Assembly (NCBI GenBank): GCA_964514465.1
Contig: CAZERQ010000192.1
Span: forward strand, 1-61,748
Length of the DNA stretch: 61,748 nucleotides
From: an uncultured Acidimicrobiales bacterium
GTDB taxonomy: Bacteria > Actinomycetota > Acidimicrobiia > Acidimicrobiales > Hopanoidiivorantaceae
Direction: 5' to 3'
Shown piece by piece: positions 1 through 22,622 of this stretch (its first letter is position 1; each line of letters starts with the position of its first letter). Both the position numbers and the translations under genes were made by a program. The notes below the pieces were generated by a model that did not search any database, had not been told where the DNA came from, and worked only from the letters and a program-made list of their open reading frames with translations.

Positions 1-1
1 G

Positions 2-2080
2 GATTGCACAGCCAGGAGTTCAACGACATACCGCGTTGACGACGATGGAGATGCGAACCTCACCGGCACGAGTGTCGTGCTGAAAGGCAAGGTCAAAGTC
101 GCCGGCACCAACGGCAAAGCAGATAGATATGTGACCTGCTCATATGATCTCGTGCTGTCAGATAATTCGGATAACCTAGAGGAGCAGCCTCCGCCCGATG
201 ATGGAAATGTCCATGATGCTCCTTTGGCTTCTGCGAACAAGCAGGTTGCTGTGAACTTCCGGTCGTTGTTCGCACCGGGGGTAGATATTGATGTGCCGTC
301 TGATTTGGACAGCGCTTTCGTGGGTGCACCATTTAAGGTTGAGTTCTATCGTGTGGGCAACGACAACGAGTTTTGCACAAAATTCGGTCTTGTGACTTAT
401 GTGCTTCGGTCCGGGGGGTCTGTGACGATTGAAGGCGATAGGGTTTCCTTGGTGGGTAAATATATTGATTCCGGAGAATCTGTGGCGTGTTCTTATACAG
501 TGGTGTTCCCAAGTGGCATCAAGCCTCCCACTTCGGCCGGGGATCCTGCGGGCAGTGCAGTCAGAGTAAGGGCACTGCAACCGGGTGCTGACGCTGACAG
601 CCATGTGGGAGTCGCCTCGCCCGATGTCGAAGCGGATTATGATTTTCCGAGTTATTTTTCCCCCATCGTCAGTTTCGCTGGCGCGGGCATTGCTGAGATG
701 GCAGGCCTGGTTTCTGTTGAGGTCAGCTTTGGGAATGACACGGCAGCAGGCGCGCAGTCGGGCTGTTCTGAGCCTGCATCAGCAGTCTATGTGCTAACTG
801 GAGGCAGTTGGGGGTTGCAGGACAGCACCTTTGAGCTGGTCAACAGCCCCACAGGTTCGGATCTTGGGTGTTCATATTCAGTGAGCTTGCCCAAAGTTGT
901 TGAATCAGGCGACAGTGTCTTCGTCCAGCAGACTAGAGGCGACATCTCGGTGAGTTCCACCAGCCCGCTGGAAGCTGTTTATGCACCCGGGTATACTCTC
1001 CCTACCACTGTGTCGGTGCCCCAGATTGACGGGGAAACCGCAGGCATAAAGAAATTTGCAAACTCCAATATTGCGCTTGATTTTGAGATTGAGCCTGGGT
1101 CGCCGGGTTGCCCAGACGAGGAAAAATTCAGATATACTGTCAATGATGAGGGCACCGTGGTTGCGGCTAATGGAACTGAAGTCAGACTGATGAAAGCACC
1201 GCTAGTGCAGATCACCCAAGATTCACAAATTGTCTGGTCCCTAGCTGCGGGCAACTGCCGATATGAAGTCAAGCCAACTTCTGATGCGGAAGAGTTGGCA
1301 TTGTACTTTCCAAGAAAGAAACTAGTTGTAGATCATACGTTTTCTTCGATCACAATAAAGTTTGCAGTGATGTTTGAGGTGGATGTGGACATAGACATTC
1401 CAATGGAACTAAATGCAGGTGTCAACATTTTCTCTGGAGCCACCATAACCGTTGATTTCGAAACTGTATCTGACCTTAATCCTGGATGTGAAAACTCAAG
1501 TGCAACTTTCACGGTGCAAAACGACGGAAGTTTCTCTAGTTTAAGTATTGATTTGGTTGACTATCCTGCAGGGGGAAGTTCACGGTGCTTCTACATAGTT
1601 AAATTTATGGATGTGGTAACAATTAATGAATATAGACTTGAACTTCAGATAAATTCGACAGTGGCAATTGATAATACAGTGCAATCACCGGAGATAGAAG
1701 CCGATTATGCTAGTGTGTTTGCTCTCCAAATCACGTTTGAATTACCTGATAGGGATGGTGCAAATAGCTTAGCGGGCACACTTTTGGTTGCAACATTTGA
1801 TCGAGATCCAAGATCACCTTCTGGATGCATTTCACGGACACTAGTTTATCAAGTGCAGAGCAATGGAGATGCAGAACGGTTGTCTGGTCAAAACAATTAT
1901 CTACTGGATCGACCGACCGAGCAACTCTTCACACCAGGGACGCTGACGACATGTGAATACATTCTGTCTAGCTTTGTGTCTAGTAGCGCTAGCATAGTTT
2001 TCGTGAAAAATGAAGCCTTTAGATTCAGTGCTTTGACACCAAGTGGAATCGCTGAATTCAGGGATACTAACACCGGATAA
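2..2080 (+). CDS. Secreted or surface tandem-repeat protein, 5-prime truncated by the window edge; divergent paralog of the downstream giant repeat protein
   Basis: The frame of ORF 77..2080 has no stop back to nt 2 (DCTARSSTTYRVDDDGDANLTGTSVVLKGKV precedes the listed GTG). About 6 degenerate ~110-aa units each carry a Cys pair (CTKF..CSYTVVFP, CSEP..CSYSVSLP, CPDE..CRYEV, CENS..CFYIVKF, CISR..CEYILSS). Composition is very AT-rich. Stop TAA at 2078-2080. Confidence 0.7.
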   Translation, partial: DCTARSSTTYRVDDDGDANLTGTSVVLKGKVKVAGTNGKADRYVTCSYDLVLSDNSDNLEEQPPPDDGNVHDAPLASANKQVAVNFRSLFAPGVDIDVPSDLDSAFVGAPFKVEFYRVGNDNEFCTKFGLVTYVLRSGGSVTIEGDRVSLVGKYIDSGESVACSYTVVFPSGIKPPTSAGDPAGSAVRVRALQPGADADSHVGVASPDVEADYDFPSYFSPIVSFAGAGIAEMAGLVSVEVSFGNDTAAGAQSGCSEPASAVYVLTGGSWGLQDSTFELVNSPTGSDLGCSYSVSLPKVVESGDSVFVQQTRGDISVSSTSPLEAVYAPGYTLPTTVSVPQIDGETAGIKKFANSNIALDFEIEPGSPGCPDEEKFRYTVNDEGTVVAANGTEVRLMKAPLVQITQDSQIVWSLAAGNCRYEVKPTSDAEELALYFPRKKLVVDHTFSSITIKFAVMFEVDVDIDIPMELNAGVNIFSGATITVDFETVSDLNPGCENSSATFTVQNDGSFSSLSIDLVDYPAGGSSRCFYIVKFMDVVTINEYRLELQINSTVAIDNTVQSPEIEADYASVFALQITFELPDRDGANSLAGTLLVATFDRDPRSPSGCISRTLVYQVQSNGDAERLSGQNNYLLDRPTEQLFTPGTLTTCEYILSSFVSSSASIVFVKNEAFRFSALTPSGIAEFRDTNTG

Positions 2081-2084
2081 TCTG

Positions 2085-5000
2085 ATGTTTGAGGGAAATG
2101 TGCAGTGCTGCTCAAGAGTTGCTGGCTGGGTGTGGGCAGGCGCGATATTCATCGCAGGGGTTCTGGCAGTGTTATTTTGGCTGGGATTTGGTGTTGGTTC
2201 TGCCTCAGCTCAGGAACAAACAGGTGAGCCTGATGTTGCCACCACGTTTATTCCTGAAATTACAATTACCGTGCCCCAAGTGGATATCAATGGAGATGGA
2301 ATAAATGATTTCAGTGGCACATTTTTTAGACATAGGATTATGGTAGCGCAAGATTCTGATGCTGGCTGTGGCGGGCTTCTTCATGGTGAGCGTTTTTCTT
2401 CGCTCAGTTGGTCGCTCAAAGTGGTGCCCAGCGGTTTGGTCGAATCTCATGGTCTCAATTGGCGCCAAAGTTTAATTGGTCGTCCTGCTGGGGTGGAGAA
2501 GGAGTGTATTTATGAAATTAGATGGCCGACTTTTCAAGCAGGTGAAGCAGTTATGGTGCGACGGTCTGGTCCTGTTGCGACGGTAAGCTATTCTAATAGG
2601 GTGGTTAGTGCAGATTATGTGGCTGGGACTGTTGCGTCGTTTAGTCCCGAAGTTAATATTTCAGTGCCTGATGTTGATACCAATGGTGATGGTGTGAATG
2701 ATTTTTCTGGCACAAATTTTGAGGTGTTTTTCCGCCGGTTGGCCGGCTCCAACTCTGCTTGCTCCCATAGTGAGTACGGAATGTATACAGTTCAAAGTGA
2801 TGGCAGTGTGGCCGTGCATGGTGAGGCGCCTGTGCTGGTGGATCGTACAGTTGAAATGTCTTCAGAAGGATGTTCATACAGTGTAAGATGGCCGACGGTG
2901 GTTGGTTTCGTTCTCCAGCCCGGTGCCAGCGATGCAGTGAACTACACCGCCAGGAGCATCTCTGCTTCTTATGCATCTGGTACGGTACTATCGTTTAGTC
3001 CCGAAGTTAACATCTCAGTGCCTGAAGTCGATGTTGACAACGATGGAGTGAATGATTTATCTGGGACAGAGTTTGTCATAAAGTTTGATGGATCAGGTTC
3101 AATCGCAGATGGCTGCTATTCTTTTGCGAACGCGACTTATGTTGTGCAGGATAGTGGGGCAGTTGAAGTGTCTGGCGAAGTGCCTGTGCTGGCATTCAAA
3201 ACAGTGGGCGAAGACTGGCATTGTAGCTATGAATTGACTTGGCCGACTGTTCCTGGTTTGGTGCGGAAATCTGGCTACACGACTGAGGTGACAAGTGAAC
3301 GTTATGGTCGTTACTCAAGTATTGCGTCTGCAAGTTATGTGGCTGGTTCTGTGGTTTGGTTTAGTCCAGATGTTGACATTTCGGTGCCCAATTTGGATGC
3401 AGATGGCAACAGTGAGAACGACTTTGCAGGGACTCAGTTTTTGGTGCAATTTAGGCGATCACCAAAATCTGGAGCTGAATGCACTGCCTTTGCAGGCGGG
3501 ACTTACGTGGTGCAAAATAGCGGTGATGTAACTGTATCTGGCGATGAACCTGTCTTAGTGGATCGCTCAATAGGGATGAGTGCACTGTGGTGTGAGTATA
3601 ATGTGTCGTGGCCGACTGTTGCTGGTTTAGTATTGGATATACATGAGCGAAAAATTGTGGGCTTTAGTTCTCTAAATTCACTTGGGTTCCCGAGACCAGC
3701 CTCTGTGGCTTCTGCTAACTACAGAGCGGGAGATGTTATTTCGTTTAGCCCTGATGTCAATATTTCGGTGCCTGCTTGGGATGCCAACAACGATGGTGCG
3801 AATGACTTAGCCGGCACACTATTTGCTGTTGAGTTTAGACGTGCTTTCGGCCATGGTGATCGGTGCACATTATCTGCGAACGGGGTTTATGTTGTGCAGG
3901 ACAATGGTGAGGTTGTGGTGTCGGGAGCAGAGCCTGTCTTGGTGGATCGCACAGTTGGAGAGACTGAAGGGTGTGAGTACGAAGTGATTTGGCCCAATAT
4001 TGGGGGTTTGGAACACTATTATATTTGGCAGCCAAACACGACACGTGTGCATGCGGCTAGAAAAACAGTTTCCATCAGATATAATTTATCAACAAGAACA
4101 ATATTTTTTCCTAGAATAACGATTACAGTTCCACGAACAGATGCTGATAGTGATGGAACAAATGATTTTTCGGGGACTCGATTTGTGGTGGAGTTCAGTC
4201 CAGCGACTGGTTCGCCCAGTGGCTGTTCGGGTTCGCAAGAAAATCATTTAAGTGGAAGTTATACGGTCCAAGATAGCGGGTTGGTAACTAGGGATCAAAC
4301 TGGGTCTGGCTGGCTAAATTCTGGTACTGGTTGGATGGTGGACCGTCCGGGGGGGTTGACATCCAGGTGTTCATATGATGTTATGTGGCCGACAGTTGAA
4401 GGTTTGGCGCGCCAATCTGGTGCCACAATGATTCTAAAAGCTGCAGGCAGGGAAATTTCAGCAGTTTATGTTGCTGGGTCAGAATCTACTTCCTTGGTTG
4501 AAGAGTTGGAAGAGCAAACTTCAAGCTCTAGTGATGCTACAGTTGCATCAAGTTTTAGTCCCATTGTGGAAATAAATATTCCATGGTTGGACGCAGACAA
4601 TAACAATGTAAGCGACTTTTCTGGCACTCAGTTTATGGTTTCGTTTAAGCGGGTGTTTGGTACCAATGCTGTGTGCACCGATTCTTTGAATGGAATTTAT
4701 GTGGTGCAAGATGACGGTGATGTGATGGTGGCTGGCACGGACCCGATCTTGGTGGACCGCCCAGTTGGTGTTACTACAAATTGCATTTATGTGGTTGGGT
4801 GGCCTGCGGTGGAAGGTTTGATATATTCACATACAATTTTTTCCGCATCTTCGGTGAATGCTTTCTCAAAAACTGCAAGGGCCACTTACCAATCTACTGT
4901 GGACACGACGTTTAGCCCAATTGTTAATATCATGGTCCCACAAGTAGATGCTGACAGTGATGGGGAAAATGATTTCGCTGGAACTCAGTTTGTGGTGAAA

Positions 5001-8000
5001 TATACACTTACCATTAATAGCAATTGGCGTTGCGGCAACAGTGCGCTAACAGGGACTTATGTGGTCAGAGATAATGGTCAAGTTACGGTGTTAGCTGCTG
5101 AACCAGTGTTAATCAACCGCCCAGCTAGGCAGCATAGCGATTGCGAATATAATTTAACCTGGCCAGTTGCGCCTGGTCTAGAACTCCAAATAGGTGCTTC
5201 AACTTCAGTGAGTGCATCCAACAGGGCCATTTCTGCAAGTTATGTGGCATATGTGGCACCGGCCACAACATTTAGTCCTAAAGTGGTCATTACAGTTCCG
5301 CAATTGGATGCTGGAAACGGTGGAGTCAATGATTTTTCTGGCATCAGGTTTGTTGTATTGTTCAGGCGTGTGTTTGGTACTAGCGCAGAATGCACAAACT
5401 CCGCGAGTGCGACATATGAGGTTCAAAATAGCGGTGATGTGTCTGAGACCAGCGCAGCTGTGCTGGTGGATCGTCCTGCCGGGTTGGCCTTAAGCTGCAT
5501 CTATGCTGTGACATGGCCTAGTTTTGTTACTTTGGTGCCACTATCTGGAGCCACCACTTCGGTAAGCGCTTCTGCTAGAACTGTTTCGGCTAGCTATGGG
5601 GCGCTGTTAAATTACGACAGTTTTTTTCCGACTGCCATCATTTCTGTGCCTCAGATAGATGCAAATGCTGATGATGCCAATGATTTTGCGGGCACTGAAA
5701 TTCCAATATCTTTCTCTCCCACAGCTTTGTCCCACCGAGAATGTGGTTATACCTCGAATTATATTGTTGGGTTTCAAATTCCGACAGGAAAATATGTGGT
5801 CAAAGAAAGCGGCACAGTGGCAGTTGTCAGTGCACATGTGCGTCATGACCTGGTGAGTTATGTCACCGGGGCAAGTTCTATTTGTGTGTATGATGTAATC
5901 TGGCCCGACGTGGCTGGCTTAGTATTGCAGCCTGATGCCACAGCCACAGTGAGCTACACGGTGGAGACTATCTCTGCCAGTTATGTGGCCGCCACTGTCA
6001 CAACGTTTAGCCCCACTGTGAACATTTCAGTTCCGCAAACGGATGCTGGAGGGGATGGTGTGAACGATTTTGCGGGAACAAGTGTTGCTGTGACGTTCAG
6101 TCGCGTATCTGACTCCAGTTCTGATTGCTCTGCTTCAGTGAGCGGGGTTTATGTTGTGCAAAACAATGGGGATGTGGAGTTAACTGGAACGGCACCCATG
6201 TTAGTGGATTATCCGGCCAGGTCGGCGGATGGTTGTGTTTATGATGTGGCATGGCCAGATGTGACTGGTTGGGACATTCAACCTGGGGCATCCAACACTG
6301 TGCAAGGTTCTGCCAGAATTGTTTCTGCTGGCTTTGCGGTTTCTGAGGAGACTGCTGCCACCACGTTTAGCCCGATGGAAGATATCACGGTTCCCCAGTT
6401 AGATGCTGATGGAGATGGCGTGAATGATTTTTCTGGAGTTAAGTTTCAGGTGGGATTTGCTCAAAATTGGCAATTGAGTGGTGGGTCAGGCCATTGTTCA
6501 GATACCATAGTGAAAACGTATGTAGTGCAGGACAGTGGTGATGTGGTGGTTTCGGGTACTAAACCTGTATTGATTGATCGCTCGGCAGGAGCAACTTTAG
6601 GCTGTGTCTACAATGTGGTATTATTGGCACCTGATGGCTTAACTCGTCCAAACCTTTATCCATTTAGTTTTTTGAGTGCTGCGAACAGGACTCTTTCGGT
6701 GCATTTTCTTGCGACTCCTGCATCGACATTCATCGCAGATGTGTCTATTTCAGTTCCGCAGACTGATGCCAATGGGGACGGTAACAATGATTTTTCTGGC
6801 ACCAGATTTGAAGTGACGTTCAGGCGTGTTTTCGGATCAAATGTGGGATGCACAGATTCTGCGAGCGGGACCTATGTCGTCAGAGACAACGGCGTCGTGA
6901 CGGTGGCTGGCGCAGAACTAGTTTTGGTTAATCGCCCGGTTGGTGGAATAGTGAGGAAGTGCGAGTATGCGGTTGTTTGGCCGACAATTGCTGGGTTTAC
7001 TCGTAAGCCTGGTTCCACCACAACGGTTTCTTCCTGGTTGTCCTATGTCAACTCTGTAGTGGCAGCTGACAAGACTGCTTCAGCATCGTATGAAGCAACT
7101 GATCCTGTGGTTGACACTGCTGCCACTTCGTTTAGCCCGACTGTTGATATTTCGGTTCCGCAGCTGGACGCCGATGGTGATGGTGTGAATGATTTTGCGG
7201 GGACTGGGTTTGTGGTGACGTTTAGGCGTGTGTTTGGTTCTGATGTTGGTTGCACGAGTTCGGCTAGTCGCACCTATGTTGTGCAGAATGACGGCACGGT
7301 GTCGGGGGCAGATTTGTCTTTGGTGGATCGCCCTGCTGGCGTGAGCTCTGGGTGTTCGTATGCTATAACTTGGCCTTCTGTTGCTGGTTTGGTGCGCCAG
7401 ACCGGGGCGACCTCGAGGGTGAGCGCATCAACGAAATCTGCTTCTGCAAGTTACAGTGCGATTGCTGCAACTTCGTTTACGCCTGATGTGGTGATTTCGG
7501 TTCCGCGGTTGGATGCTGACAGGGATGGTGTGAATGACTTCTCTGGCAGGCGTTTTGTGGTGACGTTTAGGCGGGTGTTTGGCTCTGATGCTGGTTGCAC
7601 GAGTTTGTCCAGCCGCACCTATGTTGTGCGGAGTGACGGCACGGTGTCCGGGGCCGGCCCGTCTTTGGTGGATCGCCCTGCGGGTAGTACCACGGGTTGC
7701 ATCTATGTTGTGGGTTGGCCGGCTGTGACTGATTTGGTGCGCCAATCCGGTGCCACCGCTACGGTGAGCGCGTCGGCCAGGTCCGCTGCGGCGACATATC
7801 AGACCGGCTCTACCTATGTTGCGCCTGTGCCTGCAGCGGAGGAACCTGAAGTTGAGGAGCCAGAGGTCGGGGAGCCTGAGACTGAGGAACCCGAGCCAGA
7901 GTCGCAGGAGCCTGCCCCCGCGGAGCCTACCCCGGGGGTTGAGGAGCCAGTGGTTGAGCAGGCGCAGAGTCCGGTCGCGGTCGGTTCGGCAGGTGGTGGC

Positions 8001-8699
8001 GCAGTTGGCGGAGGCGGTAATGCTGGCACCGCAAACGCTGGTGTCGGGGCATCTGGTGGCGGCGTGAATGCCGGAATTGGATCTGGCTCCGGTACTGTGG
8101 CCGATTCGGGCGTGGGTGTGTCTGGTTCGGTTCCGGGTGCGCCCGTGCCCGAAGTCGGTGTGATTCAGTTGTCGCGGGGTTGGGTGATGTTGCCGTTCAA
8201 TGGGCCGTCAGGGATGACGCCGGCTGATTTCGCCTCGGCATTGGAGGGCGCGATCAATAGTGTGTGGGTTTGGGATCTGTCTGCTCAGCAGTGGCAGGGC
8301 TGGACAGCCAGCCGGGGTTCCTTTGGTTTGACGGGTTTGGTGCCTGGTGATGTGGTGATGGTTTATGCGCCTGCTGGCGGGACGGTGGTGTATAGCCCGG
8401 CTGACCTGTTGGGCCACCGGGTTGGTGTGAACAGCTGGACTTTGGCGCCGACCGGGATTTCGCTGGTGGTCTATGGCGGCGGCACTGCAACCTCGGCTTC
8501 TGATGTGTTTGCTAGCTATGCGAATTCTGCTGTGGTGGTGTATCTGTGGGACAGCCAGAACCAGCGCTGGGAGTATCACCTGCCCGGCCGCCAGCCGCTG
8601 TCGTCTGTTCAGGTGCCGTGGTTCTCAGACATCAACCCGGGCGATGCCATGTTCGTCTATAACATCTCACCCACAGCGGTCACCATCCCCTGGGAGTAG
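2085..8699 (+). CDS. Giant secreted tandem-repeat protein: signal peptide, 15 repeats of ~115-125 aa with DxDxDG-like loop and Cys pair, Pro/Glu-rich and Gly-rich linker, Trp-rich C-terminal double module
   Basis: One uninterrupted 6.6 kb ORF. The N-terminus is WVWAGAIFIAGVLAVLFWLGFGVGSASA|QEQ, signal-peptide-like. The motif FSPxVxISVPQxDAxGDGVNDFAGTxFxVxFRRVFGSxxxCTxSASxTYVVQxxGxV....LVDRPxGxxxxCxYxVxWPxVxGL recurs 15 times. Start is ambiguous: ATG 2085, GTG 2100 preceded by GAGGGA, or the listed GTG 2043, which overlaps the upstream gene. Confidence 0.85.
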   Translation: MFEGNVQCCSRVAGWVWAGAIFIAGVLAVLFWLGFGVGSASAQEQTGEPDVATTFIPEITITVPQVDINGDGINDFSGTFFRHRIMVAQDSDAGCGGLLHGERFSSLSWSLKVVPSGLVESHGLNWRQSLIGRPAGVEKECIYEIRWPTFQAGEAVMVRRSGPVATVSYSNRVVSADYVAGTVASFSPEVNISVPDVDTNGDGVNDFSGTNFEVFFRRLAGSNSACSHSEYGMYTVQSDGSVAVHGEAPVLVDRTVEMSSEGCSYSVRWPTVVGFVLQPGASDAVNYTARSISASYASGTVLSFSPEVNISVPEVDVDNDGVNDLSGTEFVIKFDGSGSIADGCYSFANATYVVQDSGAVEVSGEVPVLAFKTVGEDWHCSYELTWPTVPGLVRKSGYTTEVTSERYGRYSSIASASYVAGSVVWFSPDVDISVPNLDADGNSENDFAGTQFLVQFRRSPKSGAECTAFAGGTYVVQNSGDVTVSGDEPVLVDRSIGMSALWCEYNVSWPTVAGLVLDIHERKIVGFSSLNSLGFPRPASVASANYRAGDVISFSPDVNISVPAWDANNDGANDLAGTLFAVEFRRAFGHGDRCTLSANGVYVVQDNGEVVVSGAEPVLVDRTVGETEGCEYEVIWPNIGGLEHYYIWQPNTTRVHAARKTVSIRYNLSTRTIFFPRITITVPRTDADSDGTNDFSGTRFVVEFSPATGSPSGCSGSQENHLSGSYTVQDSGLVTRDQTGSGWLNSGTGWMVDRPGGLTSRCSYDVMWPTVEGLARQSGATMILKAAGREISAVYVAGSESTSLVEELEEQTSSSSDATVASSFSPIVEINIPWLDADNNNVSDFSGTQFMVSFKRVFGTNAVCTDSLNGIYVVQDDGDVMVAGTDPILVDRPVGVTTNCIYVVGWPAVEGLIYSHTIFSASSVNAFSKTARATYQSTVDTTFSPIVNIMVPQVDADSDGENDFAGTQFVVKYTLTINSNWRCGNSALTGTYVVRDNGQVTVLAAEPVLINRPARQHSDCEYNLTWPVAPGLELQIGASTSVSASNRAISASYVAYVAPATTFSPKVVITVPQLDAGNGGVNDFSGIRFVVLFRRVFGTSAECTNSASATYEVQNSGDVSETSAAVLVDRPAGLALSCIYAVTWPSFVTLVPLSGATTSVSASARTVSASYGALLNYDSFFPTAIISVPQIDANADDANDFAGTEIPISFSPTALSHRECGYTSNYIVGFQIPTGKYVVKESGTVAVVSAHVRHDLVSYVTGASSICVYDVIWPDVAGLVLQPDATATVSYTVETISASYVAATVTTFSPTVNISVPQTDAGGDGVNDFAGTSVAVTFSRVSDSSSDCSASVSGVYVVQNNGDVELTGTAPMLVDYPARSADGCVYDVAWPDVTGWDIQPGASNTVQGSARIVSAGFAVSEETAATTFSPMEDITVPQLDADGDGVNDFSGVKFQVGFAQNWQLSGGSGHCSDTIVKTYVVQDSGDVVVSGTKPVLIDRSAGATLGCVYNVVLLAPDGLTRPNLYPFSFLSAANRTLSVHFLATPASTFIADVSISVPQTDANGDGNNDFSGTRFEVTFRRVFGSNVGCTDSASGTYVVRDNGVVTVAGAELVLVNRPVGGIVRKCEYAVVWPTIAGFTRKPGSTTTVSSWLSYVNSVVAADKTASASYEATDPVVDTAATSFSPTVDISVPQLDADGDGVNDFAGTGFVVTFRRVFGSDVGCTSSASRTYVVQNDGTVSGADLSLVDRPAGVSSGCSYAITWPSVAGLVRQTGATSRVSASTKSASASYSAIAATSFTPDVVISVPRLDADRDGVNDFSGRRFVVTFRRVFGSDAGCTSLSSRTYVVRSDGTVSGAGPSLVDRPAGSTTGCIYVVGWPAVTDLVRQSGATATVSASARSAAATYQTGSTYVAPVPAAEEPEVEEPEVGEPETEEPEPESQEPAPAEPTPGVEEPVVEQAQSPVAVGSAGGGAVGGGGNAGTANAGVGASGGGVNAGIGSGSGTVADSGVGVSGSVPGAPVPEVGVIQLSRGWVMLPFNGPSGMTPADFASALEGAINSVWVWDLSAQQWQGWTASRGSFGLTGLVPGDVVMVYAPAGGTVVYSPADLLGHRVGVNSWTLAPTGISLVVYGGGTATSASDVFASYANSAVVVYLWDSQNQRWEYHLPGRQPLSSVQVPWFSDINPGDAMFVYNISPTAVTIPWE
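2241..7800 (+). repeat. Array of 15 in-frame coding tandem repeats (period ~345-390 nt)
   Basis: Repeat heads: TTFIPEITITVPQVDINGDGINDFSGT, ASFSPEVNISVPDVDTNGDGVNDFSGT, LSFSPEVNISVPEVDVDNDGVNDLSGT, through TSFSPTVDISVPQLDADGDGVNDFAGT and TSFTPDVVISVPRLDADRDGVNDFSGR. An acidic/Ser-rich spacer (SESTSLVEELEEQTSSSSDATV, ~nt 4480-4560) splits units 1-6 from units 7-15. Confidence 0.9.
7131..7800 (+). repeat. Two most similar adjacent repeat units (units 14 and 15), exact 345-nt offset
   Basis: TTT of FSP at 7131 and of FTP at 7476. Long identical nucleotide runs are shared, e.g. gtggtgacgtttaggcg, ggttgcacgagtt, cgcacctatgttgtgc, gacggcacggtgtc, tctttggtggatcgccctgc. Confidence 0.85.
8160..8699 (+). 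repeat. Dispersed direct repeat, copy A (coding: C-terminal W-rich double module of the giant protein)
   Basis: LSRGWVMLPFNGPSGMTPADFASALEGAINSVWVWDLSAQQWQGW...WEYHLPGRQPLSSVQVPWFSDINPGDAMFVYNISPTAVTIPWE. Pairs with 10063-10602. Confidence 0.85.
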
Positions 8700-8784
8700 C
8701 CGCCCCTGCAGTGCCGCAGCGTTGCTCGGCAATCTGTCTGAGCCAGAGGTGTCTGGTCGGGGAATATATTGTGGGGGAGGGGAA

Positions 8785-10602
8785 ATGTTTTTTACGAATT
8801 TTAGGTGCCAAGCATCTTGGACTACACTATTTTCTTTGAAATTACTGGCCCACAAAATCATCTCGGAAATCACCATGAAAAACACAGAGAACACAAACAA
8901 TGTCACCCGGCAAAACCAAATCTGGCCGAAGCTCAAAACTTTTTGGCATCCCACGAAGCGTTGTGCGCTGGTCACCCCCGCACTGGCATCGGCGCTCGTG
9001 TCGTTGCTCGCACTGGCGCTGGTGGCAATCGGGCTGTCGGCCAATCCCGCTTCGGCCCAAGACCAACCAGCCGACACAACCTTTGACCCCGTCATACGTC
9101 TCAGGTTCCCGTCATTCAACGACAACGGCGACACCACCAACGACTTGGCGGGCACCCAGTTCACGATCTCCTTCAGCCCGGTGACCGGCTCCCACCCCGA
9201 CTGCACAGAATCAGCGAGCCGAACCTACACGGTGCCCAACCAGGGCCTGCTGGAGCCGTCATCAAGCACGGGATTTCCCCTGGTGGATCGCCCCGCCGGG
9301 GTCGCTTTTGACTGCGTTTATGCCGTGGCTTGGACGGATCTGCCCGAGCTGGATGTCAGCGTGTCGCTCGGCAACAACTTTCCGCAAAACTCTGTGAGCG
9401 CATCGGCCGAGACGATTGCGATCATCTATATGTCGGCCGCCAACCGGAGCTTCACTCCGTCCGTGAGCATTGGCGTCCCCCAGTCGGGCGGCGTTGGTGG
9501 CGGCGGCGTTGGCGGCGGTGCTGGCGTGAACGATTGGGCTGGCACCCGCTTTGAGGTCATGTTCGAGTCGGCTTCGCCGGCAAATCCCGATGGTTGCTCG
9601 GAAGCGATGGTCGGTGCCTATGTGGTGCGAGATGACGGCGAAGTGGTGCCGGATGGGACGGAGCCCAGTTTGGTGTATCTGGCTGAGGGGGAATACAGCT
9701 CGTGTTCCTATGATGTGATTTGGCCGGATGTGGCCGGTTTGGTGCGCCAGCCCGGGGCCACGACTGGAGTGAGGACTTTGCGACAGACGGCTGCTGCGGT
9801 TTATGAGGCTGAGGCGCCGGAGCCCGACACCGAAGCTGATGCCGCCGAGCCCGAGGCTGGGTCAGAGCCCGAACCCGAAACCGCCGACCCCGAGACTGCT
9901 AGCCCCGAAACCGCTGCCGACCCTGAAACCGAAACCGCCGCCCAACCCGAAAGCAACGGAGCCCAGACGGTCGCGCCAGCCCAGACAGCCGTGCCGACCC
10001 AGCTGGCCATGCCCGCCCAGCAGACCGAACCCCAGCCCGAATCGCCAGCGTTTGACATCGCAATGTTGCAGCTGCCGCGGGGCTGGACGATGTTGCCGTT
10101 CAACGGGCCTTCGGGGATGACTCCGGCCGAGTTCGCTCTGGCGCTCGAAGGTGCGGTCAACAGCGTGTGGGTGTGGGACATCGCGGGTCAGCAGTGGCAG
10201 GGCTGGGCGGCATCCCGGGGTTCGCTGGGTCTGGCGAGCCTGGAGCCGGGCGATGTGGTGATGGTCTATGCGCCGGTCGGCGGCGTGGTGGTGTATCGTC
10301 CGTCTGATTTGCTGGGCCATCCGCCCGGGACGAACAGCTGGACTTTGGCGCCGTCAGCCATCTCGCTGGCGGTCTATGGCGGCACGAGCGCGGTGGCGGC
10401 GGCCGATCTGTTGGGCGACTTTGCCGGCTCGGTGGTGGCGGTCTATCTGTGGGATGCAGACAACCAGAGCTGGGAATATCACCTTCCGGGGCGCCAGCCC
10501 CTGTCGGGCGTGCAGGTGCCGTGGTTCTCCGACATCAACCCCGGCGACGCCATGTTCGTATACAATATCTCACCCACAGCGGTCACCATCCCCTGGCAAT
10601 AG
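8785..10602 (+). CDS. Secreted 2-repeat paralog of the giant repeat protein with the same Trp-rich C-terminal double module
   Basis: Signal peptide ALVTPALASALVSLLALALVAIGLSANPASA|QDQ. Two repeat units follow (TTFDPVIRLRFPSFNDNGDTTNDLAGTQF... and RSFTPSVSIGVPQSGGVGGGGVGGGAGVNDWAGTRF...), then a Pro/Glu/Thr-rich linker and a C-terminal domain closely similar to nt 8160-8699. ATG 8785 has a GGGGGAGGGG Shine-Dalgarno 2 nt (core GGAGG 5 nt) upstream. ATG 8875 (MKNTENT...) is an equally plausible start. The listed 8473 start overlaps the previous gene and is rejected. Confidence 0.8.
   Translation: MFFTNFRCQASWTTLFSLKLLAHKIISEITMKNTENTNNVTRQNQIWPKLKTFWHPTKRCALVTPALASALVSLLALALVAIGLSANPASAQDQPADTTFDPVIRLRFPSFNDNGDTTNDLAGTQFTISFSPVTGSHPDCTESASRTYTVPNQGLLEPSSSTGFPLVDRPAGVAFDCVYAVAWTDLPELDVSVSLGNNFPQNSVSASAETIAIIYMSAANRSFTPSVSIGVPQSGGVGGGGVGGGAGVNDWAGTRFEVMFESASPANPDGCSEAMVGAYVVRDDGEVVPDGTEPSLVYLAEGEYSSCSYDVIWPDVAGLVRQPGATTGVRTLRQTAAAVYEAEAPEPDTEADAAEPEAGSEPEPETADPETASPETAADPETETAAQPESNGAQTVAPAQTAVPTQLAMPAQQTEPQPESPAFDIAMLQLPRGWTMLPFNGPSGMTPAEFALALEGAVNSVWVWDIAGQQWQGWAASRGSLGLASLEPGDVVMVYAPVGGVVVYRPSDLLGHPPGTNSWTLAPSAISLAVYGGTSAVAAADLLGDFAGSVVAVYLWDADNQSWEYHLPGRQPLSGVQVPWFSDINPGDAMFVYNISPTAVTIPWQ
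10063..10602 (+). repeat. Dispersed direct repeat, copy B (coding: C-terminal W-rich double module of the 2-repeat paralog)
   Basis: LPRGWTMLPFNGPSGMTPAEFALALEGAVNSVWVWDIAGQQWQGW...WEYHLPGRQPLSGVQVPWFSDINPGDAMFVYNISPTAVTIPWQ. The run atctcacccacagcggtcaccatcccctgg, the last 30 nt before the final sense codon, is identical in both copies. Confidence 0.85.
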
Positions 10603-10625: not shown

Positions 10626-11507
10626 ATGGGGCCTGACCAAAAGCCGCGCGCAAATGCCGACGGCACGCTGGCGGCCGTGATTGGAAGTCCGGTCGGCCAT
10701 TCGCTGTCGCCCGCCATACACAACGCCGCCTTCAGAGCGGCCGGGCTCAGCTGGCTGTTCGTGGCGTGGGAGGTGCCCGATGGGTTGGCCGGCGAAGCCT
10801 TGTCGGCCATGAAGTCGCTTGGCATGGCCGGGCTGTCGGTCACCATGCCGCACAAGACCGCAGTGGCTGAGGCGGTCGACACGCTCAGCCCCCAAGCCAA
10901 AAAACTGCAGGCGGTGAACTGCGTGGCGCGCCAGGGCAACCAGCTGGTCGGGCACAACACGGACGGCATTGGGTTTCTGGCCAGCCTCAGGGCCGATGCC
11001 GATTTTGAGCCGCGGGGCAAGACGGCTCTGGTGGTCGGGGCGGGCGGCGCGGCGCGGGCGGTCGTGCTGGCGCTGGCCGAGGCGGGGGCGGCCGGCATCG
11101 GTGTTTTGAATCGGACACCTGCCCGGGCGCAGGCTGCCGCTGATTTGGCGCCCGAGGTTGCCCGGCCCGCTGCGCCCCGTGAGGTCGGCGGATTTGACTT
11201 GGTGGTGAACGCCACGCCTGTGGGGATGGCCGGCTCAGGCGGCGCGGGTTCGCCGAGAGACTTGCCCCTGCCGGTGGACGACTTGCACCCCGGCCAGCTG
11301 CTGGTGGATCTCATATACGAACCGATGGAGACCCCGCTGCTTCAGGCTGCCCGAGCCAGAGACGTGCCGGCCATCGGAGGGCTCGGTATGCTGGTGCATC
11401 AGGCGGCGGCTGCCTTTGAGATTTGGACGCAGCAGCCCGCGCCGGTCGAGGCTATGACCGAGGCCGTCAAGTCCAAGATGTCGCCCGTGCCCGCCGCCAA
11501 CTTTTAG
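10626..11507 (+). CDS. aroE: Shikimate dehydrogenase
   Basis: GSPVGHSLSPAIHNAAF, SVTMPHK, GHNTDGIGF and a GAGGAARAV Rossmann motif. Confidence 0.9.
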   Translation: MGPDQKPRANADGTLAAVIGSPVGHSLSPAIHNAAFRAAGLSWLFVAWEVPDGLAGEALSAMKSLGMAGLSVTMPHKTAVAEAVDTLSPQAKKLQAVNCVARQGNQLVGHNTDGIGFLASLRADADFEPRGKTALVVGAGGAARAVVLALAEAGAAGIGVLNRTPARAQAAADLAPEVARPAAPREVGGFDLVVNATPVGMAGSGGAGSPRDLPLPVDDLHPGQLLVDLIYEPMETPLLQAARARDVPAIGGLGMLVHQAAAAFEIWTQQPAPVEAMTEAVKSKMSPVPAANF

Positions 11508-15534: not shown

Positions 15535-17157
15535 ATGTCAGGCACTAGACGACATTCCAGAGAGCTGGCTCTGGCGCTGCTGTATGAAGCCGACAGCAAG
15601 CAGGCCACGCTTTCGGATGTGCTGGCCGGGCAGCTGATGGCGCCGCCCGAGTTTGCCCGAGAGTTGCTTGGCGGAATAGAGGAGAACCTGGATGACATTG
15701 ACGCCAAGATTCAGCGGCACACACAGGGCTGGGACATCGACCGTCTGGCGCGGGTGGATCTGGCGCTGCTGCGGCTGGGGGTGTTCGAGGTGTGCTTTTG
15801 TGATGACACTCCGCACGCGGTGGCCATGGATGAGGTGGTCGAGCTGGCCAAGCAGTATTCCACGGCTGAGTCGTCGCGCTATATTAATGGGGTGCTGGCC
15901 GGCGTGTTGGCCGAGAGCCGTTCGACAACTGACGGTGGCGCGATGACCGACGGCCGTGCGATGACTGCCAGCCGCGCGATGACCGACGGCGGCCTGACGA
16001 CCGACGGCCAACTCGTCCTGCGCGACGGCACCAGTTTCTCCGGCAAACTTTTCGGCGCGGCCAGCCCGACCGGATTCGCCACGGGCGAGGTCGTGTTCAA
16101 CACCTCCATCGTGGGCTACCAGGAGATCATCACCGACCCGTCATATGCCGGCCAGATCATCGCCTTCACCTATCCCCACATCGGCAACTATGGCATCACC
16201 GCCCACGATGACGAAAGCCAGACGCCGGCCTGCCGTGGCATCATCGTGCGCAACTTGACCCTGCGCCCCAGCAACTGGCGCGCCGAAGGCAGCTTGTCCG
16301 AGCAGTTGGCCGCGGCGGGGCTGGCGGCCATAGCCGACATCGACACCCGGAGGTTGACCCGCCACATCCGCCAGTTCGGTTCGATGGTGGGGGCGTTCGG
16401 CGCGCTCACCCAAGCCGAGCTGCTGGAAGCTACCCAAGCCGAGCCGGGCACCGACGGGGTGGATTTGATTTCGCAGGTGACCTGCGCCGAGCCGTATATG
16501 GCAGACGAAGTGTTGGCAGCCGACGGGGCCGCGCCGCCCGGGCAACCTACCGAGACAGGCAAGCCCACCGAGACAGGCGCGCCGCCCGAGCCGCGGCCGT
16601 GGCGGGTGGTGGCCTATGACTTCGGCATCAAGCGCACCATACTGCGACAGCTGGCCAGCTTCGCCGAGGTCGAGGTGGTGCCCGCGTCAACTCCGTATGA
16701 CGAGGTGCTGGCGCGCCAACCCCACGGGGTGTTTTTGTCCAACGGCCCGGGCGACCCCAGATGCAGCCCAAAAGTGTCGCAGAACATCGCCAAGCTGCTT
16801 GGCAAGCTGCCGGTGTTTGGCATTTGTCTGGGGCATCAGATTCTGGCGCAGGCACTGGGAGCCGAGATCGTCAAGCTGCCGTTCGGACATCACGGCGGCA
16901 ACCATCCGGTGGCCAACTGCGCCACGGGCCAAGTGGAGATCACCGCGCAGAACCACAACTTCGCGGTGGCGCATCCGGCCGCGAGCTTTGAGGTTACCCA
17001 CTTGAACCTGAACGACAACACAGTGGAAGGTCTGTGGGCCAAAGATGCGCAGGCCCGGGGAATACAGTATCACCCGGAGGCCGGGCCGGGCCCGCACGAC
17101 AGCCGTTATCTGTTCGGCGAGTTCCGACAGATGATGGAGAGCTTCCACAAGCCCTAA
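15535..17157 (+). CDS. carA: In-frame fusion of NusB (antitermination factor) and CarA (carbamoyl-phosphate synthase small subunit)
   Basis: aa 1-~130 are NusB-like ([12 protein letters not shown]...[17 protein letters not shown]). From ~aa 160 it is CarA ([16 protein letters not shown]...[56 protein letters not shown]). There is no stop codon between the two parts. Confidence 0.85.
15940..16011 (+). repeat. 4 x 18-nt in-frame tandem repeat forming the NusB-CarA linker
   Basis: gcgatgaccgacggccgt / gcgatgactgccagccgc / gcgatgaccgacggcggc / ctgacgaccgacggccaa, encoding [24 protein letters not shown]. Confidence 0.9.
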
Positions 17158-20452: not shown

Positions 20453-22144
20453 TTAGAACAAGCCGACTATCTCGCCGTCTTCGTCCAGGTCAATGTCAAA
20501 CGCGGCCGGAGCCGAACCCAAACCGGGCATGGTGCGCATGTCGCCGCAGATGGGATACAAAAAGCCCGCCCCGACCGAAGCCCTGACCTCGCGCACCGGC
20601 AGCGTCCAGCCCGTGGGGGCGCCGTTGAGTTTGGGGTCAGACGAAAGCGACAGATGGGTCTTGGCGATGCACACCGGCAGCTTGTCAAAACCGGCCGCGG
20701 TGTAGGTGTCCAACTGGCGCGACGCCGCCGGCGTGTATGACACATCGTCCGCGCCATAGACCTTGGTGGCGACCGCGTGGATCTTGTCTTTCAGCGAGGC
20801 ATCGTCCGGATACAACAGCTCAAAGCTGCTGTCTTCCTGGGCCGCCTCCTCCACGACCTCGGCCAGCCCGGTCGCGCCCGCGCCGCCGTCTGAGAAGTGG
20901 GTGCTGACCGCGCTGCGCACGCCTTCCTCCGCGCAGATCTCGGCGATGGCCGCATGCTCGCTGTCGTGGTCGGTGGGGAAGGCATTGATGGCCACCACGG
21001 GGCTGACGCCATGCAACGCGATGTTTTGGATCTGCTTGCGCAGGTTGGCCGACCCCTCGTGCACCTCGTCTGGATTCTCGGCCAGCATCTCCTCGGGCAG
21101 CGGCCGGCCCGCCACCACGCGGTGCTTGCCCGACTGGCTCTTGAGCGCCCGCACGGTGCACACCAGCACGGCGGCATCGGGCTGCAGACCCGAGACGCGG
21201 CACTTGATGTTGAAGAAGCGCTCGGCTCCCATGTCGGCGCCGAAGCCGGCCTCGGTGATGACATAGTCGCCGCTGTGGATGCCGATCAGGTCGCCCACCA
21301 CCGAAGAGTTGCCGGTGGCGATGTTGCCGAAGGGGCCGGTGTGGACCAGAACGGGGGTCTGCTCCAGGGTCTGCATCAGGTTGGGCTTGAGGGCGTCCTT
21401 GAGGATGACCGCGGCCGAGCCCGCCGCCTTGATGTCTTCGGCCGTAACGGGATCGCCGTCTGGGGTGTAGCCCACCACCACTTGGCCGAGGCGTTGGCGC
21501 ATGTCGGCTTGCGATGTGCTCAGCGCCAGCAGCGCCATGAGCTCGGACGCGGCGGTGATGTCAAAGCCGCTTTGCCGGGGCACCCCGTCCAGGCGAGTCC
21601 CCAGCCCCACCACGATGTTGCGCAGGGCCCGGTCGTTGATGTCGAGCACCCGGCGCCAGGTGATGTTGTGCATGTCCAGGTTGGAGGCGTTGCCGTGATA
21701 GAGGTGGGCGTCGAGCAGGGCGGCGCACATGTTGTGGGCGGCGGTGACCGCATGCATGTCGCCGGTGAGGTGCAAGTTGAGCATCTCCATGGGCACCACC
21801 TGGCTGTGGCCTCCGCCGGCCGCGCCGCCTTTGATGCCAAAGGTCGGGCCCATGGACGGCTGGCGCAAAGTGATCATGGCCGAGCGGTTGATGTGCGAGA
21901 AACCCTGCCCCAGGCCGACGGTGGTGGTGGTCTTGCCTTCGCCGAAAGGGGTGGGGGTGATGGCCGAGACCAGGATGTATTTGGCCCGCGGGCGGTCGGA
22001 CATCTTGTCGATGGCGTCAAGTGAGACCTTGGCGGCGCCTGTGCCGTATGCCTCCAGGCAGTCCTGGGGGATGTTGGCTTTGTCGGCGATCTCAGACAGC
22101 GGGGCGAGCTTGGCCGCCCGGGCGATTTCAAGATCAGATTTCAT
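20453..22144 (-). CDS. fhs: Formate--tetrahydrofolate ligase
   Basis: MKSDLEIARAAKL..., ITPTPFGEGKTTTTVGL, ATGNSSV, LPVCIAKT. Start set at ATG 22144 with GGAGGA 6 nt upstream. The listed 22561 start is an unsupported extension. Confidence 0.92.
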   Translation of the reverse strand: MKSDLEIARAAKLAPLSEIADKANIPQDCLEAYGTGAAKVSLDAIDKMSDRPRAKYILVSAITPTPFGEGKTTTTVGLGQGFSHINRSAMITLRQPSMGPTFGIKGGAAGGGHSQVVPMEMLNLHLTGDMHAVTAAHNMCAALLDAHLYHGNASNLDMHNITWRRVLDINDRALRNIVVGLGTRLDGVPRQSGFDITAASELMALLALSTSQADMRQRLGQVVVGYTPDGDPVTAEDIKAAGSAAVILKDALKPNLMQTLEQTPVLVHTGPFGNIATGNSSVVGDLIGIHSGDYVITEAGFGADMGAERFFNIKCRVSGLQPDAAVLVCTVRALKSQSGKHRVVAGRPLPEEMLAENPDEVHEGSANLRKQIQNIALHGVSPVVAINAFPTDHDSEHAAIAEICAEEGVRSAVSTHFSDGGAGATGLAEVVEEAAQEDSSFELLYPDDASLKDKIHAVATKVYGADDVSYTPAASRQLDTYTAAGFDKLPVCIAKTHLSLSSDPKLNGAPTGWTLPVREVRASVGAGFLYPICGDMRTMPGLGSAPAAFDIDLDEDGEIVGLF

Positions 22145-22316
22145 GGGTGTTCCTCCTGGATGTGTGTGGTTAACTTGTCCAGTTGGCAATTCTAGTGGCT
22201 GGCGCGGACGAGTGCTGGCGCGGACGGGTGCACCGGCGCGGGCGGTGCTGGCGCGGGACGGCTCGGCCACGTTGCGGTTCGGCCACGATGCGCCCACATT
22301 CCTATACGCTGAATTA

Positions 22317-22622
22317 ATGTCTTTATCAAAGTGGCGGGCCGATTGCGACGGCGTGTTCGACAAAGTCAGCCGGCAGCTGGAGCGGCGCGAGCAGTTGTGC
22401 TCCCGGGTGGCAAGCGGCCAGGTTGGGGTGGCCGAGTTGGTGCTGGCGGAGGATCCGGAGCCGCTGGTGTCGGAGACCAAGCTATTGAGTTTGCTGGATT
22501 GCGTGGAGGGGTTGGGCAAGGTGCCGGCGCGCAAGCTGCTGGGCGAAAAGCAGAACCTCAAGGTGGGTCAGTTCTCCCGCCAGGAGCTGCAGCAGTTGAT
22601 GGAAGGGGCCAGTCTTGTCTAG
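22317..22622 (+). CDS. mihF: Integration host factor, actinobacterial type (mIHF-like)
   Basis: ~100 aa, lies immediately upstream of gmk as in other Actinomycetota. SETKLLSLLDCVEGLGKVPARKLL...FSRQELQQL resembles the mIHF helix-hairpin-helix region. It is the in-frame tail of ORF 21729..22622, whose upstream part overlaps fhs. Confidence 0.65.
   Translation: MSLSKWRADCDGVFDKVSRQLERREQLCSRVASGQVGVAELVLAEDPEPLVSETKLLSLLDCVEGLGKVPARKLLGEKQNLKVGQFSRQELQQLMEGASLV

Follow-up and report, generated by a model that had tools for sequence, protein, structure and literature searches.

Giant RTX adhesins such as MpIBP, LapA and SiiE contain arrays of BIg or cadherin-like domains made rigid by Ca2+. Fibrillar adhesins, giant repetitive surface proteins with immunoglobulin (Ig)-like stalks, form a defined class (PMC8286594, PMC9210967), the motif Dx[DN]xDG marks an established class of Ca-binding loops (PMC3123361), and cadherin, fn3 and Calx-beta proteins abound in one Acidimicrobiales group of sponge symbionts (PMC11706023). 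Here we describe three genes, g1, g2 and g3, which lie on the + strand within positions 2..10602 of a stretch of 61,748 nucleotides (nt) from an uncultured Acidimicrobiales bacterium (the whole of contig CAZERQ010000192.1 of assembly GCA_964514465.1; 'the window' is the whole of this stretch). We favour, with about even confidence, the reading that they belong to a rare family of Sec-exported, acidic, rod-forming fibrillar surface proteins of uncultured Acidimicrobiia, in which a C-terminal module (CT) would serve for attachment. The family is described by none of the protein-family libraries searched (Pfam and NCBIfam), and it adds a new domain family to a class that is already well known, the giant repetitive surface proteins, without amounting to a new type of system. 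We infer the stiffening by Ca, the rod geometry, the attachment through CT and the adhesive role; the roles in adhesion, as a surface layer (S-layer) or as a phage receptor that an earlier note on this DNA had proposed are likewise inferences.

The repeat, its cysteine pair and its putative calcium loop

Relatives were collected by an exhaustive search with one hidden Markov model (HMM) of 297 positions, covering the repeat and CT, against 1.84 billion protein representatives, which gave 168 proteins at an expectation value (E) ≤ 0.001, 79 of them at E ≤ 1e-30. Their sources are metagenome assemblies of ENA, Logan and NCBI, and almost all of them are singletons; the largest reach 3957 amino acids (aa) in length and 31 repeats in number. 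Within the window, a local HMM of the g2 units detects 15 repeats in g2 itself (E 1e-38 to 1e-50), two in g3 (E 1e-27 and 4e-31) and six, one of them cut, in g1, where the copies are much weaker and more divergent (E 2e-5 to 5e-16), bearing out the earlier proposal that a single repeat of ~115 aa is common to all three genes. Neither the repeat nor CT occurs in any other open reading frame (ORF) of the window. The columns P10, C41, G55, C75 and Y77 are invariant in an alignment of 22 repeats, so that the two invariant Cys per unit noticed earlier are C41 and C75, and among 355 near-complete repeats from 87 proteins exactly two Cys occur in 349, with both positions ≥99% conserved. Lys is rare (absent from mature g3, and 22 of 2162 residues in mature g2), which makes pilin-type isopeptide cross-links unlikely and leaves a disulfide as the likely lock. 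Judged from the sequences, one disulfide per repeat, C41-C75, is likely.

The calcium loop behaves differently from the Cys pair. Dx[DN]xDG occurs in ten of the 15 g2 repeats, in no repeat of g1 or g3, and in 88 of the 355 near-complete repeats across the family. The earlier description of a DxDxDG loop as a feature of the repeat is thus correct for ten g2 units and fails for g1, g3 and most repeats of the family; the Cys pair defines the repeat family, and the loop marks a subgroup. In the structural model of the repeat the loop lies between strands 1 and 2. Binding of Ca by the g2 loops would be a motif-level prediction for g2, not a family trait. In the second repeat of g3, a Gly-rich insert (GGVGGGGVGGGAG), encoded by a short GGC/GGT tandem repeat at window positions 9487-9526, stands exactly where the g2 repeats have the acidic loop. 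We also considered the Pfam family Excalibur, whose profile positions 24-33 align to the g2 loop D-x-[DN]-x-D-G-x-x-D, and rejected membership, since the match covers only the loop (10 of 36 profile positions), no single stretch passes and the surrounding domain is unrelated.

For repeat 14 (nt 7131-7475), an AlphaFold2 (AF2) model computed from 22 paralogues is an all-beta sandwich of eight strands with a predicted local distance difference test score (pLDDT) of 95.6. This confident model, together with the conservation of the two Cys, agrees with the earlier expectation of beta-sandwich modules with one Cys pair each. With the model, Foldseek retrieved nothing from PDB at E ≤ 0.001; the closest entries, none of them significant (E 0.05-1, template modelling (TM) scores 0.43-0.51, 8-14% identity), are Ig-like domains of the Gram-positive pilins and adhesins PitA, Spy0128 and FctB, ester-bond domains and Calx-beta domains. 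Pfam, searched with the repeat up to E 1, returned the loop-only Excalibur match and a sub-threshold DUF6968, and no named Ig-like, cadherin-like, CnaB or Calx-beta family; a PDB sequence profile search with the repeat reached a best E of 0.06, nothing being significant, and NCBIfam had no match for the repeat or CT. From the model, the repeat would be Ig-like in a general sense, a sandwich for which membership of a particular family cannot be demonstrated. The earlier note had placed the repeat and CT outside named families, and the searches of Pfam, NCBIfam, PDB profiles and PDB structures were all negative in this respect; in particular, no HMM or structure match in Pfam, NCBIfam or PDB assigns both modules to a characterised family.

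Export and the C-terminal module

Both complete genes carry export signals. The sites ...GSASA/QEQ in g2 and ...NPASA/QDQ in g3 (cleavage at the slash) follow long hydrophobic stretches and have the common ASAQ(E/D)Q context described earlier. Of 45 relatives with a complete N terminus, 30 have a site of the form [AVSTG]x[AS]Q placed after the hydrophobic stretch and before the first repeat; its conservation points to cleavage by signal peptidase I and not to an uncleaved membrane anchor, and it supports the extracytoplasmic location suggested by the earlier note. The mature proteins are acidic (isoelectric point 4.1-4.5). By Pfam and sequence scans, g1-g3 have no LPXTG motif, C-terminal transmembrane or hydrophobic segment, SLH, LysM, GW or CWB2, in agreement with the earlier failure to see LPXTG, a C-terminal transmembrane segment or SLH, and the Pfam scan found no HemolysinCabind (RTX) domain. 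The sequence LAPTG in g2, the sole near match to a sortase motif, was considered as a sortase-E signal and rejected, since it reads LAPSA in g3, lies inside the folded CT and is followed by neither a transmembrane segment nor a charged tail.

Between g2 and g3, CT has a protein identity of 75% and a DNA identity of 74-79%. The earlier note had described a Trp-rich C-terminal module as common to the genes, which holds for g2 and g3 and not for g1, which ends directly after its last repeat. CT is an ancient duplication of a lobe of ~90 aa (BLASTP E 2e-4), conserved Trp, Gly and Gln are abundant in it, and the g2 copy ends one residue past a conserved Trp. An AF2 model from a 38-sequence alignment (pLDDT 97.4, predicted TM score 0.90) has two similar lobes, each with two strands, one helix and several further strands. 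Foldseek searches of PDB and BFVD with this model gave no match (TM at most 0.24). Membership of CT in the Kelch family was rejected: 17 of the 38 sequences give sub-threshold Kelch_6 matches (best E 5e-4), none above the gathering score, the signal comes from a W-x-W-D...Q-x-W stretch of ~15 residues, and the model has two lobes of ~90 aa, whereas Kelch blades have ~50 aa.

In each of the 13 aligned close homologues, CT is the last element of the protein. It is also found on secreted proteins free of the repeat, which carry CAP, Big_9/cadherin-like, Kelch plus beta-helix, or TSP3 domains. In one relative, P0040 (2749 aa, L090 382-8631), ten repeats are joined to N-terminal CW_binding_2 domains (Pfam E 1.5e-26) and CT is absent. 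We favour CT as the probable attachment module because it is constant on varying passengers, stands behind a linker of wall-spanning type and is replaced by CW_binding_2 in P0040. Seven further proteins of ~745-770 aa (P0067, P0078, P0104, P0110, P0111, P0114 and P0134) have CT at the C terminus behind an N-terminal region of ~580 aa that has no Pfam match; one repeat was detected in P0067 and none in the other six.

In the favoured reading, the proteins would be exported by a long signal peptide of Gram-positive type, cut at A-x-A/Q, and each ~115-aa repeat would fold as an Ig-like beta sandwich with the C41-C75 disulfide as its single lock. In most g2 units a Ca2+ ion would sit in the Dx[DN]xDG loop that follows strand 1 and would stiffen the chain, and the row of 15 units would span tens of nanometres as a fibre. 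A flexible Pro/Glu/Gly linker would lead from the fibre to the two-lobed, Trp-rich CT, which may fix the fibre non-covalently, most likely to the wall polymer of the cell itself, and the array would then project from the cell and could contact host matrix, particles or other cells.

The main rival to attachment is that CT is a functional head, lectin-like or otherwise ligand-binding, and that the proteins are released or otherwise held, as soluble or matrix-embedded binders or scaffolds. We think this rather doubtful, because CT stays constant and its passengers differ, a pattern usual for anchors, because it follows a long flexible linker of wall-spanning type, and because a known wall anchor takes its place in P0040. 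A head would be compatible with the occurrence of minimal proteins of one to three repeats plus CT (P0047, P0026, P0035 and g3), and with the conserved Trp, Gly and Gln, which are often found in sugar-binding modules; no other attachment device is visible after the signal peptide has been cleaved, and CT can stand N-terminal of CAP domains.

This last point also weighs against attachment through CT, along with several others. In P0068 and P0143, CT is N-terminal of CAP, which excludes a strict C-terminal sorting role and is equally compatible with ligand binding. Pfam, PDB profiles and Foldseek searches of PDB and BFVD gave no known anchor or lectin that CT matches in sequence or fold. Attachment through CT cannot be general, since g1 and many relatives (P0002, for example) end without it. 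As to the rest of the favoured reading, the Ca loop is missing in g1, g3 and about three quarters of the repeats of the family, and g2 uses codons that are rare in its genome, so that very high expression is unlikely.

Many repeat proteins without CT have another Cys-containing tail module. A Cys-containing tail follows the last repeat in P0006, P0025, P0031, P0034, P0038, P0041, P0043-P0045, P0048, P0053 and the upstream giant gene of locus L082. This tail module, with the motif ...RGDQTRDCELRVTLxxAPxGC...DDAGRSYVEL...C, is unnamed, does not occur in the window and precedes CT in L082.

Variability, base composition and surroundings of the locus

Giant genes of the family often lie side by side at related loci. 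In L082, a gene of 4574 aa with at least 25 repeats, the Cys-rich tail module and CT comes first, then P0002, with 31 repeats but without CT, and still further downstream a gene of 5318 aa for which family membership is not claimed. In L084, P0006 (3957 aa, 27 repeats) and P0025 (1777 aa, 11 repeats) are separated by an AAA-ATPase gene, and P0025 is followed by a partial gene of 647 aa whose repeat content is not claimed. Pattern scans, which reach close relatives only, found no close CT relative in 185,579 GTDB species-representative genomes, one distant match and no close CT relative in JGI metagenomes, and nothing in viral contigs. The picture of a variable surface-protein island given in the earlier note agrees with the deviant base composition described below, the clusters of giant genes at related loci and the fact that nearly all relatives are singletons.

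These same features, namely the island-like composition, the several adjoining giant paralogues here, in L082 and in L084, and the extreme diversity in which nearly every relative is a singleton cluster on one contig, could also be expected of a protective coat or decoy layer, that is, an S-layer-like sheath or a phage receptor or decoy whose variability comes from pressure by phages or host phagocytes. We consider such a layer unlikely: Pfam and NCBIfam scans of the island proteins found no SLH or other S-layer signature, the rare-codon usage of g2 is ill suited to an abundant coat protein, the neighbourhood is free of phage genes, and no matches came from the viral contig collection. Long tandem Ig-like rods are, moreover, typical of fibres and not of two-dimensional lattices.

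The composition of the locus changes along g2. The GC content at third codon positions (GC3) is ~0.8 in the backbone genes and 0.67-0.81 in g3, drops to 0.33-0.46 at the end of g1 and across repeats 1-13 of g2, is 0.62-0.71 in repeat 15 and CT, and climbs gradually through g2 repeats 14-15 and CT over about 2 kb. At fourfold-degenerate sites, backbone genes of the same strand have A.07, C.43, G.44 and T.07, and g2 repeats 14-15 have A.04, C.19, G.42 and T.35; in these repeats only C is replaced, by T, on the coding strand. At these sites of the coding strand, a strong excess of T with depletion of C recurs in the giant repeat genes of three genomes (window 1-8700, L082 1-21181 and L083 8961-14534). 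The giant gene of L083 is 32% identical to g2, and its neighbours, including a short gene with repeat and CT, have native composition (GC3 0.8). Another locus, L089 (88-4660, Logan SRR16090827), is AT-rich without skew (fourfold sites A.32, T.35). It holds two family genes, P0021 (six repeats) and P0026 (three repeats plus CT); its CT is 78% identical to that of g2, closer than the CT of g3, and it comes from a run series that also holds the exact elongation factor P of the window organism.

The difference in GC3 between g2 repeats 1-13, repeat 15 with CT, and the backbone, and the presence of the low-GC relative L089 in the same run series, could suggest an artefact, in which a low-GC 5' part (~nt 1-7000) was mis-joined to the high-GC rest, the two coming from different organisms with related genes, or in which the genes are decaying pseudogenes. 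We regard this explanation as extremely improbable taken as a whole, and both mis-assembly and pseudogenes as unlikely. The 6.6-kb frame of g2 is unbroken and its GC3 changes gradually without a step, DNA identity to L089 is only ~75% over CT, which is too low for bridging by an assembler, and the independent assembly L083 likewise pairs a giant gene of low GC3 with a short one of native GC3, among neighbours of GC3 0.8. Furthermore, NCBI annotates both g2 and g3 as coding sequences (2204 aa and 605 aa). Copies of the repeat are 60-72% identical in DNA, repeats 14 and 15, at 77-78%, being the sole pair that resembles a recent duplication, and pairs of repeats, like the two copies of CT, give a ratio of nonsynonymous to synonymous substitution rates (dN/dS) of 0.2-0.3. 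The units are thus old and under purifying selection, which, with the unbroken frame, argues against the pseudogenes that the earlier note had named as a possible refutation.

As to the cause of the T excess, replication-strand skew was rejected, since adjoining genes of the same strand are unskewed, and a single recent horizontal transfer was rejected as the cause of the low GC3, since low-GC3 giant genes are only ~32% identical across genomes. Possible causes are a flexible gene pool of lower GC together with recombination, or relaxed selection together with deamination linked to transcription, and, with much lower likelihood, a targeted process. The joint claim that a strand-specific C-to-T process on the non-template strand diversifies a repertoire of surface fibres encoded by the giant genes, and that CT is a sortase-independent attachment module of new fold in Acidimicrobiia, appears very unlikely; the process, for which transcription-linked or enzyme-driven deamination was proposed, was drawn from base composition only. 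The skewed synonymous composition is a separate, testable puzzle concerning the evolution of hypervariable surface genes in high-GC genomes.

The isoleucyl-tRNA synthetase of the window has its best match, at 72% identity, in a metagenome-assembled genome (MAG) of the sponge symbiont Candidatus Hopanoidivorans cymbastelae (Acidimicrobiales), and is ~60% identical to those of many other Acidimicrobiales MAGs, several from sponges. By this sequence evidence the host is an uncultured member of the Acidimicrobiia, and the names of its relatives indicate that it is probably marine and possibly sponge-associated. If the favoured reading is true, two confidently modelled domain families without a significant fold neighbour in PDB are added to the toolkit of bacterial surface proteins, and a first handle is gained on surface display without a recognisable sortase signal in uncultured, probably sponge-associated marine Acidimicrobiia. 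Surveys of symbiosis factors that are based on Pfam domains (cadherin, fn3, Calx-beta) would miss the repeat family entirely.

The coordinates and strands of the genes agree with the earlier description of three co-directional, tightly packed genes upstream of aroE (Table 1). Only 4 nt separate the stop of g1 at 2080 from the ATG of g2, and a GGAGG lies just 5' of the first ATG of g3. The genes after aroE are ordered aroK-aroB-aroQ-pepQ-efp-nusB/carA-carB, and an aroE-to-carB order of this kind is typical of Actinomycetota. Rfam and tRNA scans of the window returned nothing, and promoter and terminator scans gave matches at chance level only.

Table 1 Coordinates of the island genes, their parts and the adjoining gene in the window
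Feature	Position (nt)	Strand	Description
g1	2..2080	+	repeat protein truncated at the contig start, 3' part; 692 codons; 6 repeats (one partial); 12 Cys; no acidic Dx[DN]xDG loop
g2	2085..8699	+	2204 aa; ATG 2085 as in NCBI; ORF opens at GTG 2043
g2 signal peptide	2085..2210	+	42 aa; 27-residue hydrophobic core, then SASA/QEQ
g2 repeat array	2247..7820	+	15 repeats of ~115-130 aa each; 10 with Dx[DN]xDG
g2 repeat starts	2247, 2640, 2994, 3360, 3744, 4104, 4554, 4911, 5271, 5622, 6006, 6366, 6729, 7131, 7476	+	
g2 low-complexity linker	7821..8153	+	111 aa; Pro/Glu-rich, then Gly/Ala/Ser-rich
g2 CT	8154..8696	+	181 aa; internal duplication of a ~90-aa lobe
g3	8785..10602	+	605 aa from ATG 8785 (NCBI start) or 575 aa from ATG 8875; ORF opens at 8473
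g3 signal peptide region	8875..9057	+	ends ...NPASA/QDQ
g3 repeats	9082..9822	+	repeat 1, 9082-9450; repeat 2, 9451-9822
g3 linker	9823..10050	+	76 aa; Pro/Glu/Thr/Ala-rich
g3 CT	10051..10599	+	183 aa; sequence used for the AF2 model
aroE	10626..11507		23 nt beyond the end of g3

Two further frames of the window deserve mention. At window positions 15535-17157 (+), nusB and carA share one unbroken frame of 540 codons, with NusB at aa 5-125, CarA at aa 159-535 and AMTDG-like repeats in the linker between them; the same product of 540 aa is called on the independent contig L088, and the frame may be a real gene fusion. At 20453-22561 (-), the longest ORF for formate-tetrahydrofolate ligase has 702 aa and its family match begins only at residue 140; the listed TTG start is probably too far upstream.

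Comparison with known surface proteins

The architecture, an exported tandem beta-sandwich stalk with a terminal module, would by analogy match what has been published on fibrillar adhesins (PMC8286594). The island proteins share with them the signal peptide, the tandem array of ~100-aa beta-sandwich units, the low DNA identity among repeats and an extra terminal module, and g2 shares the acidic, Ca-loop-bearing units; the stalk domain of the island matches no Pfam stalk family. Among the defining parts of a fibrillar adhesin, tandem stalk domains are present (15 repeats in g2, two in g3, at least six in g1, with a beta-sandwich model). No recognisable adhesive domain was found in Pfam or NCBIfam scans of g1-g3, CT being the candidate, and a known anchor is missing from g1-g3, with CWB2 in one relative.

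RTX adhesins resemble the island proteins in their tandem Ig-like units with acidic Ca loops, which are thought to stiffen a long extender. They differ from them in that the island proteins have a Sec signal peptide instead of a C-terminal signal for type I secretion, have no RTX repeats, belong to an actinobacterium with a presumed single membrane, and carry the Dx[DN]xDG loop within the domain. As for Excalibur and other proteins with Dx[DN]xDG loops, the likeness is the loop itself in ten g2 repeats and the difference is the surrounding domain. CT, like the modular wall anchors CWB2, SLH, GW, LysM and WxL, is an aromatic-rich terminal module that stands behind a flexible linker and occurs on varied secreted proteins; unlike them, it shows no sequence or fold similarity to those anchors, and wall binding is its candidate role.

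The nearest structural neighbours of the repeat model, at a similarity that is not significant, are the Ig-like domains of pilins and adhesins of the CnaB/DEv-IgG type (PitA 7vcr, Spy0128 3b2m, FctB 3klq). Unlike those pilins, the island proteins have no LPXTG and show no sign of sortase-dependent assembly. The two kinds of domain have in common an all-beta sandwich of similar size and an internal covalent lock, predicted in the case of the repeat, which is a Lys-Asn isopeptide bond in the CnaB/DEv-IgG domains, whereas in the repeat, as the Lys-free g3 illustrates, it would be a disulfide.

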